Source of the DNA: Eubacteriales bacterium
GTDB lineage: Bacteria > Bacillota > Clostridia > Monoglobales > Firm-18
Reading direction: 5' to 3'
Length of the DNA stretch: 56,856 nucleotides
Assembly: GCA_028697835.1 (NCBI GenBank)
Contig: JAQVDK010000001.1
Span: 1 to 56,856 of the forward strand
The notes beneath the pieces were generated by a model. It did no database searches and had not been told where the DNA came from. It worked only from the letters and a program-made list of their open reading frames with translations. A program made the position numbers and the translations under genes. Below, piece by piece: positions 13,416 to 20,460 of this stretch (position 1 is the stretch's first letter; every line of letters begins with the position of its first letter).

Positions 13416-13468
13416 ATTGTAAGTTTCGAGCAGGGGCTCTTGAATACTTTATTACAGAGGAGCTTATT

Positions 13469-15448
13469 ATGGAAAAGAAAATTGTTATTATTGGCGCAGG
13501 CTATGGAGGAATTTTGACTGCAAAAAAGCTTGCAAAAAGATTTAAAAAATATCAAAATATAAATATTACTATTATCGACAAAAACCCTTACCATACAATG
13601 CTTACGGAGCTGCATGAGGTTGCGGCAAACAGAGTGGATGATGACAGTATAAAAATAAGCTTGAAAAAGGTTTTTGCAGGCAGGCGTGTAAATGTTATAC
13701 ACGATATTGTAAATAAAATTGATTATGATAAAAAGGTTGTTTTTACTTCCTTGGGCGAATATAATTATGACTATCTTGTTCTTGCCGCCGGCTCAAAGCC
13801 TACTTTTTACGGGATTGAAGGCGCCGAGGAAAATGCTTTTCGCCTATGGTCATACGAAGATGCCATTATCCTTCGAGAACACATTCATGAAATGTTTAGA
13901 AAAGCAGCAGTTGAAACAAATTTGGAGCAAAAGAAAAAACTGCTTTCTTTTTATGTTGTGGGTGCGGGATTTACAGGTGTGGAAATGGTTGGCGAGCTTG
14001 CGGAGTATGTTCCGTACTTGTGTAAAAAGTTTGATTTGGACAGGGATTTAGTTTCGATTTACAACGTGGATATCCTTTCCAGAACTGTGTCGAATTTACC
14101 TGAAAAACTATCCAAAAAAGTTGAAAAACGCTTATCCAAAATGGGCGTTAAATTCAAGCTAAACACCAATGTTGTAGCAATAGGCAAGGATTATATAGAA
14201 ACATCTGCCAACGGAAAATCGTCCCGATACAACACAAACACCGTTATTTGGGCGGCAGGAATCCAGTCCTCCGACATTACGCGAAAAGCCGCAGAAGTTA
14301 TGCAATCTACCAACAGCGGCAGGATTATGGTAGATAAATATCTACGCTCTGTTGATAACGAAAGCGTGTATGTGATTGGCGACAATATGTATTTCGTCCC
14401 CGAGGGTGAAGAAAAGCCCGTTCCTCAAATGGTGGAAAACTGTGAGCAAAGCTCCGACGTAGCGGCTAAAAATATTTATGCCCAGGTAAGCGGTAAAGGA
14501 AACCTTATAGAATACAAGCCTACCTTCCATGGGGTTATGGTAAGCGTGGGCAGCAGATATGGCGTGGCACGGGTTGGTACGCCAAAGATGATGTTTAACC
14601 TGCCTTCGTTTTTAGCTATGTTTGTCAAGCATTTTATAAACATGGTCTATTTTGCGCAGGTTGCAGGCTGGAACAAAGTTTTCAGCTATATGAAGCATGA
14701 GTTTTTTACCATAAGAAATCAGCGTAGCTTTGTTGGCGGGCATTTTTCAAACAGAACTCCCAGTTTTCTGCTTGTGCCACTTAGGGTTTGGCTTGGTCTT
14801 GTATGGCTTTATGAAGGCATTGCAAAAGTATTTGATAAATGGCTTGTCGAGCCTAAGCTTGAAGGCTTTTTTGGCGGAGCAAACAGCTGGTACAACAGTA
14901 TTTTGCAGGCGGCAGGTCAAGCGGTTGCCTTAGACGCTGCCACTTCCGCTACTGCCGAGGCTACTGCCCAGGCCACAGGCGAAGCTGCTGCGGCTGCAGG
15001 AGTGTTGATTTTTAATTGGAACATACTTGGCATATTTAAAGCCATATTCGTAAGCGGCAAAGAACTTGCATCTTCCGCTATAGGCGATTTTGCCTTTAAA
15101 CTTGACGTTCCGCTTATCAATTGGTTTATAGACACTTTAATCATGCCACAGGATACGGTTCAGGTAGTCATGCAAAGCTTTATTGTAATTGCTGAAATTT
15201 TAATCGGCCTTGCGTTGATTGGAGGGCTGTTTACAACTATCGCAGCGGGCGGCTCTTTAATTTTGCAGTTTATGTTTGTAACCACCACAGGACTTTATCT
15301 GTCAACCTTTTGGATGATTTTTGCAGGTGTGGCAGTGCTTATAGGCGCAGGGCGAACTTTTGGGCTTGATTATTATTTTATGCCGCACATAAAGCGTTTA
15401 TGGCAAAAAATACCTTTTATAAGAAAGTTGTATATATATAATGACTAA
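13469..15448 (+). CDS. ndh2: type II NADH dehydrogenase (NDH-2) fused to a C-terminal DoxX/DoxD-like membrane domain
   Basis: Two Rossmann motifs are present (IIGAGYGG and VVGAGFTGVE). The C-terminal ~230 aa are polytopic, with LRVWLGLVWLYEGIAKV and GAGRTFGLDYY. ATG 13469 follows an AGAGGA RBS, and the track start is 13406. Confidence 0.85.
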   Translation: MEKKIVIIGAGYGGILTAKKLAKRFKKYQNINITIIDKNPYHTMLTELHEVAANRVDDDSIKISLKKVFAGRRVNVIHDIVNKIDYDKKVVFTSLGEYNYDYLVLAAGSKPTFYGIEGAEENAFRLWSYEDAIILREHIHEMFRKAAVETNLEQKKKLLSFYVVGAGFTGVEMVGELAEYVPYLCKKFDLDRDLVSIYNVDILSRTVSNLPEKLSKKVEKRLSKMGVKFKLNTNVVAIGKDYIETSANGKSSRYNTNTVIWAAGIQSSDITRKAAEVMQSTNSGRIMVDKYLRSVDNESVYVIGDNMYFVPEGEEKPVPQMVENCEQSSDVAAKNIYAQVSGKGNLIEYKPTFHGVMVSVGSRYGVARVGTPKMMFNLPSFLAMFVKHFINMVYFAQVAGWNKVFSYMKHEFFTIRNQRSFVGGHFSNRTPSFLLVPLRVWLGLVWLYEGIAKVFDKWLVEPKLEGFFGGANSWYNSILQAAGQAVALDAATSATAEATAQATGEAAAAAGVLIFNWNILGIFKAIFVSGKELASSAIGDFAFKLDVPLINWFIDTLIMPQDTVQVVMQSFIVIAEILIGLALIGGLFTTIAAGGSLILQFMFVTTTGLYLSTFWMIFAGVAVLIGAGRTFGLDYYFMPHIKRLWQKIPFIRKLYIYND

Positions 15449-16409
15449 TGATAGAGTTTTAATAAACGACGCTTTTGAAAATGTAAAAGCCGAGGTGGAA
15501 AAAGCTCTTTCCTCCTCCCCTTCCATCATTAAAAGCTATACGCACTATTTGTCATTAGCAAGAGGCAAATTTATAAGGGCATATGCGCTTTTGACATGCA
15601 GCTTGGACTCTGACAACAAAATAAACACCGATGCCGTAAAGCTGGCAACAGCGGTGGAGCTTTTACATTTGGCTACTCTTGTGCATGACGATGTAATTGA
15701 TAATGCAGACACTCGCCGGGGTATCGACACGCTGCAAAAAAGGTTCGGAAAGCGCACCGCCGTTATATGCGGCGACTACCTGTTTTGCCTGGCAATTAAA
15801 AAGGCTTCGGAAATATCCGACCAAAGCAAGTTTAAAAAGCTTGACTTGGCCTTGTATATGGAAAAAATATGTTTAGGTGAGCTAAACCAGCATATAAACA
15901 ACAATAATATTGATTTGTCGATGCGCCAGTATTTAAAAATAATATCGGGAAAAACCGCCGCGTTGTTTGAGGCGTCTTGTTACGGGGGGGCATGTGTTGG
16001 CGGCTTTGACAACAGCGAGCTTAAAAAATACAAAAGGTTTGGGCGATATTTGGGCATGATTTTCCAACTTACGGATGATTGCATTGATTTTGAGGAAACA
16101 AAGGCAAATGCAAAAAAACCTGTGCAATCGGACTATGAACAGGGGGTTATAACCCTTCCTTTGATTTATGCATTTTCTCAAAAAGACCAATTAAAAAGCA
16201 AGGCAAAGGCAAAAAGGCTTTCAAGAGAAGAAATAAACGCCTCTGTTGCTTCTTCGGGCGGCTTGAAGCTTACCAGGCTCCTATCGCAACGCTATTACAA
16301 AAAGGCGGCATTGATTATTGACGATTTAAATGCGGACAAAAGCAAAAAGAATATACTTATGGAAGTTTTGGATAAAGCATTTTACGGTTTGCAGGGTAAA
16401 AAAACATGA
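15441..16409 (+). CDS. trans-polyprenyl diphosphate synthase (DmkB/HepT-like)
   Basis: The first Asp-rich motif is LVHDDVIDNADTRRG and the second is QLTDDCIDF. The gene overlaps ndh2 by 8 nt. Confidence 0.85.
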   Translation: MTNDRVLINDAFENVKAEVEKALSSSPSIIKSYTHYLSLARGKFIRAYALLTCSLDSDNKINTDAVKLATAVELLHLATLVHDDVIDNADTRRGIDTLQKRFGKRTAVICGDYLFCLAIKKASEISDQSKFKKLDLALYMEKICLGELNQHINNNNIDLSMRQYLKIISGKTAALFEASCYGGACVGGFDNSELKKYKRFGRYLGMIFQLTDDCIDFEETKANAKKPVQSDYEQGVITLPLIYAFSQKDQLKSKAKAKRLSREEINASVASSGGLKLTRLLSQRYYKKAALIIDDLNADKSKKNILMEVLDKAFYGLQGKKT

Positions 16410-17308
16410 TTAAACGTTTTTTAAGCTATGTTGAGATTAAAACCAAAATAACAAGCGTATTTGCATTTTTTATGGTGCTGGCTTATTTGTTTAATATAAA
16501 ACAGCCCATAAATTGGAGGCTGTCTGGGGTTTTCTTTGTTTCCATGTTTGTTTTTGACCTGGCAACAACAGCCATAAATAACTATATAGACACAAAAACA
16601 AATCATCAAACCCTACAGTTTAAAAGAAAAAATGCGCTTGCGATTATTGTGGTACTGCTTGCAGTTGCCACTGCTTTTGGCTTGTATCTGGCATACCTTA
16701 CCGACTTTGTCGTACTGCTTTTGGGCGGACTGTGCTTTGCATGCGGCATATTATATACCTTCGGGCCTGTGCCCATCTCCCGCCAACCATATGGAGAGGT
16801 TTTGTCCGGGCTTTTTTACGGATACTTAATACCAACAATAATGCTTTATATAAACATGCCCCACGGCACCTATTTAACCTTAGACTTTAGCTTAGAAAAA
16901 GTAATTTTAAGCATTAACGTTATGCCTTCTATAACTGTTGTACTTTTAGGTTTTTTGCCGTTTTGCGCAACAGCAAACATTATGCTGGCAAATAATATTT
17001 GCGACTTGGAAAAAGATATAACAGTAAAGCGATATACTCTTCCCTTCTATTTGGAAGGCAAATCCATCTACCTTTTTGCAGCAATATACTACTTGACATA
17101 TCCTGCCGCTGCTTTAATGGTTATGCTTAAAATATTACCGCCACTTACTTATCTTTATCTACTTACCATAATTCCTGTACAAAAAAACATAAATACATTT
17201 TTTAAAAAACAAGACAAGAGCGAGACATTTATCGTTTCGGTTAAAAATTATATTATTATAATGGGGACAATGACAATACTTATTTTTGTCAGTGGATTGT
17301 TGAGGTAG
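16406..17308 (+). CDS. UbiA-family aromatic prenyltransferase (MenA/DmkA-like, divergent motif 1)
   Basis: The 300-aa product has about 8-9 TM helices. Motif 1 reads NNYIDTKTN and motif 2 reads DLEKD. The start overlaps the synthetase stop as ATGA. Confidence 0.75.
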   Translation: MIKRFLSYVEIKTKITSVFAFFMVLAYLFNIKQPINWRLSGVFFVSMFVFDLATTAINNYIDTKTNHQTLQFKRKNALAIIVVLLAVATAFGLYLAYLTDFVVLLLGGLCFACGILYTFGPVPISRQPYGEVLSGLFYGYLIPTIMLYINMPHGTYLTLDFSLEKVILSINVMPSITVVLLGFLPFCATANIMLANNICDLEKDITVKRYTLPFYLEGKSIYLFAAIYYLTYPAAALMVMLKILPPLTYLYLLTIIPVQKNINTFFKKQDKSETFIVSVKNYIIIMGTMTILIFVSGLLR

Positions 17309-17312
17309 TGCA

Positions 17313-17702
17313 ATGTTTTTCAAAAAAAACGATATCGTAATATTGCTTATAGCAATTGTTATCGCCACGGCAGCAATATTTGCATATAATCATTTTGCAA
17401 AACAGCTTCCGGTGAAGGCAGAAATTTATCATAACGGTACTTTGGTGAAAACCGTAAGTTTAGCTTTAGGTGTTGATAAGACCTTTTCAGTCCCCGAGGA
17501 GCCGCAGGTGGTGTTTCGCCTGCATCCTGACGGTAAAATCAGTTTCGAAAAATCCGATTGCCCCGACCGCATTTGCATAAGCAGCGGAAAGCTCGGCAGG
17601 GCGGGACAGTCGGCGGCGTGTTTGCCCAATGGTTTAGTTTTGAAAATTGTGCCTGTCGGCAAGGAGCAAAAAGATGATGTAGATATTGTCATTGGTCATT
17701 AG
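17313..17702 (+). CDS. single-pass membrane protein with a NusG domain II-like (DUF1312-type) fold
   Basis: An N-terminal TM helix (IVILLIAIVIATAAIFAY) is followed by the CPDRICISSG...AACLPNGLVLKI signature that I associate with NusG_II proteins. Confidence 0.7.
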   Translation: MFFKKNDIVILLIAIVIATAAIFAYNHFAKQLPVKAEIYHNGTLVKTVSLALGVDKTFSVPEEPQVVFRLHPDGKISFEKSDCPDRICISSGKLGRAGQSAACLPNGLVLKIVPVGKEQKDDVDIVIGH

Positions 17703-17718
17703 GAAAGGTATATAAAAC

Positions 17719-18240
17719 ATGGATAAATCTGAAAAAAATATACGAGCTACCAAAAGGCTTGTTTTGACCGCCCTTTTGTTCGGCACATCCCTTATACTTG
17801 CCTTTGTTGAAGGATTCTTTCCTGCTATTCCCATTCCGGGCGTTAAATTGGGGCTGTCAAACGTGGTTGTAATGTATGCCTTGTTTTTTCTTAGCAAAAA
17901 ACAAGCCTTTTCAATTGCGATTTTAAAAGGTATGTTTGTTTTTGCAACAAGAGGGCCCGTTGCAGGTGTTTTAAGCCTTAGCGGCGGCATTGTGTCCCTT
18001 GTGTCCATGATTATACTTTCAATCATAACCAAAAGAAATGCCTCGTATTTAATTAGCAGTGTAACAGGCGCCGTATTTCATAATGTTGGGCAATTTATGG
18101 CAGTGAGCCTAATTTATTCCTTTGCTGAAATATGGATATATTTACCTTGGCTTGTAATTTTGGGGATAGCCGCAGGCGCTTTTACATCTGTCTTGCTTAA
18201 GATTATTTTACCTGCTCTTGACAAGAGCGGTTTAAAATAA
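17719..18240 (+). CDS. Gx transporter / heptaprenyl-diphosphate-synthase-component-I-family membrane protein
   Basis: The 173-aa product has about 5 TM helices and the PGVKLGLSNVVVMYALFF motif typical of that family. Such proteins are usually paired with NusG_II proteins. Confidence 0.7.
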   Translation: MDKSEKNIRATKRLVLTALLFGTSLILAFVEGFFPAIPIPGVKLGLSNVVVMYALFFLSKKQAFSIAILKGMFVFATRGPVAGVLSLSGGIVSLVSMIILSIITKRNASYLISSVTGAVFHNVGQFMAVSLIYSFAEIWIYLPWLVILGIAAGAFTSVLLKIILPALDKSGLK

Positions 18241-18293
18241 AATAAAGGGAAAAGCTATAATTATCTTATTAATCTTATTTAGGAGGAGTTTTT

Positions 18294-19334
18294 ATGAAAA
18301 AGACTTTGTTAGCTCTAATTAGCTTTGCTATTGTAATTGGCCTTCTTGCAGGATGCAGGGCAAACCAGCCTTCGCAGCCTTCTCCATCACCTTCCCAAGG
18401 GGCTGATGACGGTCAAATCAAAACAGGCTATGCGGTTATTTCATCCGCCGAAAAATCCGCTGCAAAAGAAAACGGTGGAACAGCTCAGGTAGATTCAACC
18501 ATTGTCGGTGTTATTGTTGACGGCAGCGGCAAAATCCTAAACTGCGCCATAGATGCTGTTCAAACAATAGTTGAATTTGACGGCGAAGGAAAGCTTGTCA
18601 CCCCAAAAGACACTATCGTTCCCACAAAAACAGAGCTTGGCACAGAATACGGAATGAAAAAAGCGTCAAAAATAGGAAAGGAATGGGACGAGCAAATTAA
18701 GGAGTTTGCCAAATATGTAGTAGGAAAAACCGTAGACGAAGTTAAAGGAATTGCCGTTTCGGCTGAAGGCGCTCCTACCGACGCTGAGCTTTCGTCCACA
18801 GTAACCATTAAAATAGGCGGCTACGTAGCTGCTATTGAAAAGGCAGTGAAAAATGCCAAGCCAATTGGCTCCGGCGCCAATGACAAAATTGGCATAGGCG
18901 TTTCAACCAATATTAAAAATTCAAAAGATGCTACTTCTGATGCCGACGGCGTTGTGCAGGCATATTCAACCTACTCTATTTTGACTCTTGACAGCAGCGA
19001 CAAAATAACCGCTTCCATCATAGACGCCTCGCAGGTGGAAGTTAAGTTTTCCAAAGATGGAAAAATTACCTCCGATACAAAAGCGGCTCAAAAAACAAAA
19101 AATGAGCTTGGCACGGAATACGGAATGAAAAAAGCGTCCGGCATTGGCAAGGAATGGAATGAACAAGCAGAAGCTTTTGCAAAATATACAGTAGGAAAAA
19201 CTGTTTCTGAAGTAAACGGAATTGCAATTGACGAAACCACCGTACCCCAAGTTGATGAGCTAAAAAGCAGTGTAACGATTAAAGTTGGGGATTTGCTGAC
19301 TGCTATTGAAAAAGCAGGAGCCAACGCAAAATAA
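18294..19334 (+). CDS. lipoprotein with two tandem FMN_bind-like domains (PplA-like candidate flavoprotein)
   Basis: The lipobox is LLAGC. Two ~150-aa repeats each contain K[TN]ELGTEYGMKKAS...GKEW...GKTV.EV.GIA...S[ST]VTIK.G...AIEKA. The gene is adjacent to apbE. Confidence 0.7.
   Translation: MKKTLLALISFAIVIGLLAGCRANQPSQPSPSPSQGADDGQIKTGYAVISSAEKSAAKENGGTAQVDSTIVGVIVDGSGKILNCAIDAVQTIVEFDGEGKLVTPKDTIVPTKTELGTEYGMKKASKIGKEWDEQIKEFAKYVVGKTVDEVKGIAVSAEGAPTDAELSSTVTIKIGGYVAAIEKAVKNAKPIGSGANDKIGIGVSTNIKNSKDATSDADGVVQAYSTYSILTLDSSDKITASIIDASQVEVKFSKDGKITSDTKAAQKTKNELGTEYGMKKASGIGKEWNEQAEAFAKYTVGKTVSEVNGIAIDETTVPQVDELKSSVTIKVGDLLTAIEKAGANAK
18633..19138 (+). repeat. intragenic direct repeat marking the domain duplication
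   Basis: The 35-mer gagcttggcacagaatacggaatgaaaaaagcgtc at 18633-18667 recurs at 19104-19138 with one mismatch. Confidence 0.85.
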
Positions 19335-19349
19335 TTTATCAAACTGTTT

Positions 19350-19378
19350 CGGGGGCAACAAATGTTGCTCCCGTTTTT
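19350..19378 (+). terminator. intrinsic terminator or attenuating hairpin between the lipoprotein gene and apbE
   Basis: The stem is cgggggcaac/gttgctcccg (10 bp, one G-U) with an aaat loop, followed by TTTTT. Confidence 0.6.
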
Positions 19379-19416: not shown

Positions 19417-20460
19417 ATGACAAAAAGGGCTGTTGGCATTTTTTTAAGCTTTGTAATTTTAACCATGCCTCTTTCGGGCTGCAAAACGGAAAAAAAGCGT
19501 TATCAAGCACAATTTTTAAATCTATTCGACACGGTTACTGAAATTATTGCATACACAAATAACAAAGAAGAGTTTGAAATATATGCCAAGATGATACATG
19601 ACGAGCTTAAAACATATCATCAGCTTTACGACATATACGAAGATTATGAGGGAATTGTAAACTTAAAAACCGTTAACGAAAACGCCGGAAAAGAGCCTGT
19701 CAAGGTGGACAAGAAAATTATCGACCTTCTTAAATTTGCAAAATATGCCTATGACCTAACCGGCGGCAAAACCAATGTGGCCTTGGGCGCTGTTTTGAAA
19801 ATATGGCACAGCTATAGGCAGGATGGAACAGACAATCCCCAAAATGCCAAGCTTCCTCCTTTGGAAATGCTTGAAAATGCGAATTTACACAGTAATATTG
19901 ACGATGTTGTGATAGATGAAATAAATTCCACGGTATTTTTCAAGGATAAAGATTTAAAGCTTGATGTTGGCGCGGTGGCAAAAGGCTATGCCGTGGAACA
20001 GGTAGCTAAATTTGCAAGTGACATGGGCGTATCTTCAATGCTGATAAGCGTTGGAGGTAATATATGTGCTATCGGAAACAAGGACGAAGATACTCCTTGG
20101 AATGTGGGTATTTTAAACCCCAACAAGGAAGACGAGCAAAAAAACCTTTACGTTGTAAATATTAAAGATATGGCTATGGTTACAAGCGGTGATTATCAGC
20201 GTACATACACCGTCGGCGGCAAGCAGTATCACCATATTATAAACCCCCAAACCCTGTACCCGGCAGAGTATTTTACCGCAGTGACCGTAATATGTGAAGA
20301 TTCGGGCTTGGCGGACGCACTGTCCACAGCACTTTTTAACATGCCCTTTGAAGAAGGCTTTGCATTTGTCGAGGCTATTCCAAAGGTGGAGGCTGTTTGG
20401 CTTTTTAAAGACAAAACAACCAAATACACCTTTGGCTTTGAAGGTTTTATCAAAGAATAA
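19417..20460 (+). CDS. apbE: FAD:protein FMN transferase (ApbE/FmnB family) lipoprotein
   Basis: The lipobox is PLSGC. ApbE motifs GAVAKGYA, TSGDYQR and HHIINPQT are present. Confidence 0.85.
   Translation: MTKRAVGIFLSFVILTMPLSGCKTEKKRYQAQFLNLFDTVTEIIAYTNNKEEFEIYAKMIHDELKTYHQLYDIYEDYEGIVNLKTVNENAGKEPVKVDKKIIDLLKFAKYAYDLTGGKTNVALGAVLKIWHSYRQDGTDNPQNAKLPPLEMLENANLHSNIDDVVIDEINSTVFFKDKDLKLDVGAVAKGYAVEQVAKFASDMGVSSMLISVGGNICAIGNKDEDTPWNVGILNPNKEDEQKNLYVVNIKDMAMVTSGDYQRTYTVGGKQYHHIINPQTLYPAEYFTAVTVICEDSGLADALSTALFNMPFEEGFAFVEAIPKVEAVWLFKDKTTKYTFGFEGFIKE

Follow-up and report, generated by a model that had tools for sequence, protein, structure and literature searches.

The window considered here, a stretch of 56,856 nucleotides (nt) of an Eubacteriales bacterium (contig JAQVDK010000001.1, assembly GCA_028697835.1), contains a gene at positions 18294-19334 of the forward strand, hereafter called X, which encodes a lipoprotein of 346 amino acids (aa) built of two copies of one domain. 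A Pfam scan of the window places X as the sixth of seven genes in a co-directional run with the order Ndh2-DmkB-DmkA-EetA-EetB-X-ApbE. Our analysis makes it fairly probable that X is an extracytosolic carrier of two flavins belonging to a FLEET-type operon, with flavin mononucleotide (FMN) put on residues T171 and T328 by the neighbouring ApbE. The features of the gene are as follows:

18282-18287, forward strand: Shine-Dalgarno sequence AGGAGG, 6 nt 5' of the ATG of gene X, as read from the sequence
18294-19334, forward strand: gene X, a 346-aa lipoprotein with two divergent domains of the FMN_bind superfamily, analogue of PplA
18294-18356, forward strand: signal peptide and lipobox L-L-A-G-C of X, with Cys21, as read from the sequence
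18357-18410, forward strand: tether of X rich in Pro, Ser and Gln, predicted to be disordered (predicted local distance difference test score, pLDDT, below 50 for residues 20-39)
18411-18863, forward strand: domain 1 of X, residues 40-190, with three long beta-strands preceding its helices (AlphaFold2 model of the single domain and hidden Markov model, HMM, match)
18633-18667, forward strand: first copy of a 35-nt segment, encoding ELGTEYGMKKAS, near-identical to 19104-19138
18786-18806, forward strand: candidate motif 1, E165-L-S-S-T-V-T171, with T171 as predicted FMN acceptor from the alignment with PDB entry 2KZX
18864-19331, forward strand: domain 2 of X, residues 191-346 (self-alignment, AlphaFold2 model and HMM match)
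19104-19138, forward strand: second copy of the 35-nt segment, near-identical to 18633-18667
19257-19277, forward strand: candidate motif 2, E322-L-K-S-S-V-T328, with T328 as predicted FMN acceptor from the same alignment

The initial annotation had described X as a lipoprotein composed of two domain copies of ~150 aa, a description that holds in all its parts. Self-alignment of the protein shows that the two copies, of 151 and 156 aa, are 49% identical across 154 residues (E 1e-39), and both contain the strings ELGTEYGMKKAS, GKEW.EQ, GKTV.EV.GIA and VTIK.G....AIEKA which that annotation had listed. Cys21 of the lipobox is invariant in an alignment of 25 homologues, among which the length of the tether varies; beyond this residue and the partly conserved Cys84, no conserved cluster of Cys or His is present in the same alignment. 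The AlphaFold2 model of the two-domain protein has a pLDDT of 90.6 and a predicted template modelling score (pTM) of 0.84, that of the single domain a pLDDT of 90.7. In these models each candidate motif lies in a loop directly before the last helix, and the same relative site is taken by S-G-A-T in the Pfam profile of FMN_bind. The 35-nt segments reported earlier were also recovered, with 1 mismatch in 35 positions versus ~63% nucleotide identity for the copies overall, and their identity extends to synonymous positions (34 of 35). Such near-identity suggests either local gene conversion or a constraint acting at the nucleotide level.

The proposal that these domains resemble FMN_bind, also contained in the initial annotation, is now sustained by profile comparisons. 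A profile of 315 domains of the X family matches PDB entry 2KZX, a 131-aa 'uncharacterized protein' that is a member of Pfam FMN_bind, with E 4.7e-9 and an hhalign probability of 95.9%; the A2 profile of the family matches the same entry with E 0.0094. The alignment spans ~70 residues, corresponding to the C-terminal part of 2KZX, and pairs Y-x-M, E-W-x-E-Q-A, a Tyr and finally T-D-A-I-S-G-A-T-I-K of 2KZX with D-L-x-A-S-V-T-I of the family, so that the elements common to both proteins end in D-x-x-S-x-x-T-I-K followed by a helix. In this alignment the D-x-x-S-G-A-T of 2KZX falls exactly on [DE]-L-x-[SA]-S-V-T of the X family. The aligned fragment of 2KZX itself scores 25.8 bits on Pfam FMN_bind (threshold of 22 bits), covering profile positions 16-77. 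In contrast to X, 2KZX has a single domain with the canonical T-D-A-I-S-G-A-T and lies over the Pfam threshold.

A second line of comparison leads to RnfG, which is the only protein of this genome recognised by Pfam FMN_bind. With a shallow X profile (effective number of sequences, Neff, 2.4), the hhalign comparison with RnfG was not significant (P 0.06) and improved only with a deeper profile, which is collinear with the FMN_bind domains of RnfG with P 0.0036 in local and P 0.0007 in global mode. It pairs ET.GLG with ELG.YGM, GK with GKT and SGAT with SSVT, the elements of RnfG thus appearing in the order in which X has them. Intermediate forms are found within the X family as well. One member carrying A-G-A-T gives a sub-threshold match to FMN_bind (14.7 bits, profile positions 10-76 of 77), and in the relatives P0142 and P0287 a canonical FMN_bind domain is fused ahead of two or four X-type domains. 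Through 2KZX and RnfG, X shows both the significant profile similarity and the collinear core that we take to define the superfamily, even if it scores below the gathering threshold of Pfam FMN_bind (PF04205, 22 bits) and is not a member of that family as Pfam delimits it. On the strength of these profiles, the domains of X are homologous to FMN_bind, very divergent and outside the Pfam model.

The putative flavinylation sites can now be read in register, counting back from the predicted acceptor at position 0. X carries D163-A-E-L-S-S-T-V-T171 in its first copy and D321-E-L-K-S-S-V-T328 in its second, the two strings from which the initial annotation had deduced a motif deviating from S-G-A-T. 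The strings are indeed present, but the acidic residue at -6 is E165 or E322, rather than D163 or D321 as had been assumed. Similarly, the Gly-Ala pair before the acceptor is replaced as claimed, yet not simply by Ser, for positions -2 and -1 hold Thr-Val in the first copy and Ser-Val in the second. X therefore retains two of the features of ApbE substrates, namely an acidic residue at -6 and a hydroxyl acceptor at 0 (E165 with T171, E322 with T328), and lacks the Gly-Ala pair expected at -2 and -1.

This pattern is typical of the family. S326, V327 and T328 are invariant in the 25 aligned homologues, and 200 close homologues show [DE]-L-x-[SA]-S-V-[TS] in both copies. Every one of these has an acid at -6 and a hydroxyl residue at 0 (100%), while Leu at -5 is kept in 98-100% and Ser at -2 in 93-98%. 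A wider sample of 326 domains, taken from 149 representatives sharing no more than 50% identity, has D/E at -6 in 92% of cases and T/S at 0 in 97%, with S, G or T at -2 and V, C or A at -1; Gly occupies -2 in 69 of these domains, while Ala is found at -3 in 148. The relatives P0124, P0141 and P0142 have a domain with canonical D-L-x-S-G-A-T paired with one bearing S-S-V-T, and P0233 has A-G-A-T in both of its domains. Because S-G-A-T and S-S-V-T are mixed within one protein, they are evolutionary alternatives at one site. The replacement of G-A by S/T-V is thus most likely a recognition variant characteristic of the family and not the loss of a site, as judged from these alignments.

A comparable latitude is seen in RnfD, which carries FMN attached by ApbE (PMC12052999). 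In 29 Clostridial loci the RnfD motif reads D-x-x-[ST]-[S/T/A/Q]-A-T-P-L, with Ser/Thr at -2 in 23 and Gly in 3, and judging from the motif its Thr would be the acceptor of FMN. Gly at -2 is dispensable for Clostridial RnfD, and across these loci the textbook S-G-A-T is not the rule. RnfD of the present genome has D-F-V-T-Q-A-T, while its RnfG has L-T-G-A-T; both are ApbE substrates of the organism that encodes X, although RnfG, NqrC and RnfD differ from X in being subunits of membrane complexes instead of free lipoproteins, and the sequence similarity between RnfG and X is marginal (P ~1e-3). A protein of 360 aa with two FMN_bind matches (L028) seemed at first a suitable canonical reference with two domains but was rejected, since it is a duplicated RnfG and not a lipoprotein. 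Mutants of a model substrate in which the Gly is changed to Ala or the Ala to Val retain ~50% of flavinylation, and the Asp of the motif is not strictly essential (reviewed in PMC12052999). As far as its sequence tells, the motif of X can be reconciled with what Clostridial ApbE tolerates in RnfD. Of the two options left by the initial annotation, namely that ApbE accepts a relaxed motif or that flavin is bound non-covalently, the comparative data favour the former. A search of full-text literature retrieved no paper on this Clostridial lipoprotein, nor on S-S-V-T or G-C-T sites or their flavinylation.

The other genes of the operon and the element between its last two genes are the following:

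13466-15448, forward strand: Ndh2-type dehydrogenase of reduced nicotinamide adenine dinucleotide (NADH) extended at its C-terminus by a membrane portion; the operon's first gene (Pfam Pyr_redox_2, E 5.4e-38)
15441-16409, forward strand: DmkB-like polyprenyl diphosphate synthase (Pfam polyprenyl_synt, E 3.9e-56)
16406-17308, forward strand: DmkA-like 1,4-dihydroxy-2-naphthoate prenyltransferase of the UbiA/MenA type (Pfam UbiA, E 1.3e-16)
17313-17702, forward strand: EetA-like NusG_II membrane protein (Pfam NusG_II, E 1.6e-20)
17719-18240, forward strand: EetB-like Hpre_diP_synt_I protein (Pfam PF07456, E 1.9e-31)
19350-19378, forward strand: terminator-like hairpin between X and apbE, with a 10-bp stem including 7 G-C pairs, followed by TTTTT
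19417-20460, forward strand: ApbE/FmnB-type FAD:protein FMN transferase (FAD, flavin adenine dinucleotide) with lipobox L-S-G-C (Pfam ApbE, E 2.2e-69)

The ApbE gene that had been noted next to X is therefore confirmed, and it is the only one of the genome. Both proteins have a signal peptide and a lipobox (L-A-G-C in X, L-S-G-C in ApbE), as read from the sequence without a predictor. The window contains the gene set of Listeria-type FLEET loci, namely ndh2, dmkA, dmkB, eetA, eetB, apbE and a carrier lipoprotein; the assignment of DmkA is also in line with its match to NCBIfam NF004752 (E 9.8e-69), which lies under the cut-off of that model. The same gene order is found in Ruminiclostridium cellulolyticum H10, whose orthologue of X lies near 1.374 Mb of CP001348, between the Hpre_diP_synt_I and ApbE genes. 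Among 80 named loci of Clostridia that the alignment of the X family brought up, 76 have apbE immediately 3' of X; of the other four, two are truncated by a contig boundary. The upstream genes are conserved too (Ndh2 in 59 loci, DmkB in 59, DmkA in 63, EetA in 60 and EetB in 61), the full Ndh2-DmkB-DmkA-EetA-EetB-X-ApbE string being present in most of the long loci. The membrane extension of Ndh2, of ~230 aa, shows a faint trace of DoxX (E 0.069) and is kept in the R. cellulolyticum protein (669 aa). The hairpin sits within the 82 nt that separate the X stop codon from the apbE start, where it may attenuate read-through and so leave the carrier in excess over the transferase.

In function, the known protein closest to X is PplA of Listeria monocytogenes, which is reportedly encoded in the FLEET locus, which Light and colleagues are said to have described in 2018. 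According to the literature, its domains are recognisable by Pfam FMN_bind and its motif is canonical. Like PplA, X is a two-domain lipoprotein and putative flavin carrier lying beside a transferase of the ApbE type (FmnB in Listeria), together with ndh2, dmkA, dmkB, eetA and eetB, and it presumably occupies the same position in the pathway. It differs in having no detectable Pfam FMN_bind domain, its domains being of ~155 aa with long beta-strands and the motif [DE]-L-x-S-S/T-V-T; moreover, the fmnA (ECF-T) gene of the Listeria FLEET locus is not within the X operon. EetB of Listeria is an ECF-S-like subunit that binds FAD and is needed for its export, which enables FmnB to flavinylate PplA (PMC9973259).

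In structure, X is best compared with a class of domains called FMN-bind2. In the article on this class (Huang, Meheust, Barquera and Light 2024, mSystems, PMC11334425), FMN-bind2 domains are described as having ~160 aa and occurring in even copy numbers of 2, 4 or 6, an extended face of beta-sheet pairing two domains into a pseudo-symmetric unit with two sites. The same text states that the class has no InterPro entry and was discovered by BLAST rather than Pfam; it terms the motif '[S/T]GA[S/T]-like', and the portion available does not discuss S-V, G-C or S-C variants (PMC11334425). X fits every one of these descriptors, with domains of 151 and 156 aa, an even number of copies, a two-domain model of pTM 0.84 showing three long strands in each domain, and no Pfam match. 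Its identity with FMN-bind2 is therefore likely, as judged by these descriptors.

The X family is extensive: clustering at 90% leaves more than 2,382 matching proteins, and at the level of 50% identity there are 1,738 clusters, with 608 below E 1e-30. Copy numbers of 2, 4, 6 and 8 predominate among X-type domains, and several proteins consist of such domains only: P0121, P0280 and P0284 have six each, while P0281 has eight in 1324 aa. P0309, from Izemoplasmatales, has six shorter X-type domains in which two kinds, A and B, alternate, with the motifs D-N-V-A-G-V-T and D-N-V-A-N-V-S. In P0223, P0307, P0308 and P0335 a Ser/Thr protein kinase domain (Pfam PF00069/PF07714) is joined to X-type domains, of which two are resolved in P0223 (residues ~421-570 and beyond) with the motifs D-L-A-S-S-A-T and D-L-S-S-S-V-T. 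Judging by this architecture, the fusions may be Hanks-type kinases equipped with an extracytosolic redox sensor that works through flavin. Of 401 genomes sampled from the phylum, 46 yielded the family, and X was found in 1 of 40 relatives of the present genome (none of the 21 belonging to the same family), so that X and its operon constitute an accessory trait in this lineage. The locus has a G+C content of 0.37-0.45, no different from its flanks; we make no claim of horizontal transfer, X being rare among the relatives but unremarkable in composition. X is in no way unusual within its class of FMN-binding lipoproteins, which is large, unannotated and already sketched, and it lies in the operon that is usual for them.

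From the conserved gene order, the homology to FMN_bind and the conservation and register of the motif we infer the covalent modification of X, the residues that accept it, the path of its electrons and the acceptors to which these pass. The lipid anchor at Cys21 and the disordered tether would keep the two domains of ~155 aa on the outer face of the membrane. EetB, with EetA, would help the export of FAD, the FMN moiety of which the adjoining lipoprotein ApbE would then move to T171 and T328. These acceptors would be the last residues of [DE]-L-x-[SA]-[ST]-V-T, in register with D-x-x-[ST]-G-A-[ST]. Electrons would pass from NADH to Ndh2, hence to a quinone of the demethylmenaquinone type made by DmkA and DmkB and from this to the two flavins of X, which might deliver them to acceptors outside the cell, for instance iron, free flavins or reductases.

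Several results weigh against such a carrier function. Scans of X with the Pfam and NCBIfam models give no match at E<=1, FMN_bind included, and the comparison with the FMN_bind HMM that the initial annotation had suggested as a check is therefore negative for X taken singly. Structure prediction, which that annotation had named beside HMM similarity as a way to refute the idea, gives no match either: Foldseek searches of PDB with the full-length and single-domain models have no FMN_bind chain in the top 50 (2KZX being absent from these) and nothing at E<0.001. Consequently, the fold relationship between X and solved FMN_bind domains (3O6U, 8P2A, NqrC and RnfG) stands on sequence profiles and not on structural superposition; phmmer comparison of X with PDB sequences likewise gave no match. 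It could be argued on these grounds that X is not a flavoprotein at all, but a lipoprotein descended from FMN_bind that binds quinone, metal or a substrate, or acts as a scaffold. In keeping with this, the best full-length Foldseek matches are with scaffolds of the IscU type, other weak matches being with beta-sheet look-alikes (MHC, LptE and NTF2); with template modelling (TM) scores of ~0.3-0.4 and a root-mean-square deviation of ~9 A, the IscU matches were rejected as homology. We consider a non-flavin role quite improbable, since the residues shared with 2KZX (Y-x-M, E-W-x-E-Q-A, Y and D-x-x-S-x-x-T-I) are the most conserved of the X family, the protein fills the PplA slot of a FLEET operon beside genes for FAD export and FMN transfer, and there is no conserved Cys/His cluster to hold a metal besides the lipobox Cys and the partly conserved Cys84. 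Genomic distribution also calls for caution. ApbE is present in 33 of the 41 genomes examined, this one included, and X in 2 of them; the adjacency of X and apbE is weaker evidence in this genome because its sole ApbE serves Rnf anyway. As to the correspondence with FMN-bind2, its exemplars NTW96865.1 and WP_312031774.1 did not surface by name in searches from the six-domain relatives and their clusters, which also brought up no Hujiaoplasma or Erysipelotrichaceae record.

The flavinylation of S-V motifs, moreover, is a prediction from sequence for every member of the X family, and the mutants mentioned above are single substitutions, not the double change from G-A to S-V (PMC12052999). X may accordingly hold its flavin non-covalently, or be flavinylated partly or in one domain, in which case S-V would be a decayed ApbE site whose Thr would bind phosphate or cap the helix. 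The replacement of Gly-Ala in both copies, the dominance of Val and Cys at -1 across the family and the halving of flavinylation in a model substrate by G-to-A or A-to-V alone (PMC12052999) are all consistent with this idea, as is the evolutionary interconversion of covalent and non-covalent flavoproteins shown by Huang et al. (2024; PMC11334425). Nevertheless, one would expect drift at a decayed site, whereas 92-100% of the domains retain the anchors of the motif, the acidic residue (-6) and the hydroxyl (0); the pairing of X with ApbE in 76 of 80 loci would be hard to explain if the enzyme did not act on X, and Ser/Thr at -2 is usual in Clostridial RnfD. Non-covalent or partial flavin binding thus appears unlikely. 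A narrower question is which hydroxyl receives FMN, given that three or four consecutive residues of the motif carry one and that Ser at -2 is so well kept in close homologues (93-98%). S168 or T169, and S325 or S326, could in principle replace T171 and T328; but the occurrence of Gly at -2 in 69 and of Ala at -3 in 148 of the 326 domains indicates that neither position is a universal acceptor, while position 0 is T/S in 97%, and it is on position 0 that the alignments with 2KZX and RnfG set the acceptor Thr. Attachment to one of the other hydroxyls is very improbable. Covalent flavinylation of X at T171 and T328 remains our favoured interpretation.

For gene X itself these results are largely confirmatory, their main value lying in annotation. 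When genomes are surveyed for flavin-based extracellular electron transfer or for ApbE substrates, Pfam FMN_bind and the motif [S/T]GA[S/T] are what is relied upon, and the X family escapes both; Clostridial FLEET operons carrying X therefore look as if they had no terminal carrier. If S-S-V-T and G-C-T were flavinylated, the motif accepted for ApbE would widen, the annotation of electroactive anaerobes would improve and more sequences for flavin tagging would become available. A bolder and rather doubtful extension is that [DE]-L-x-[AS]-[SG]-[VC]-T constitutes a distinct, second recognition code of ApbE in thousands of Clostridial surface proteins, the opposite being that these sites are unflavinylated and electrons are carried otherwise. 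In the latter case, the commonest replacement of PplA in Clostridia would carry electrons in some other way. Were the second code true, the specificity of the cognate ApbE could be used for orthogonal flavin tagging, and present counts of extracytosolic flavinylation and FLEET capacity would fall well short of the true figure for anaerobes of gut and sediment.

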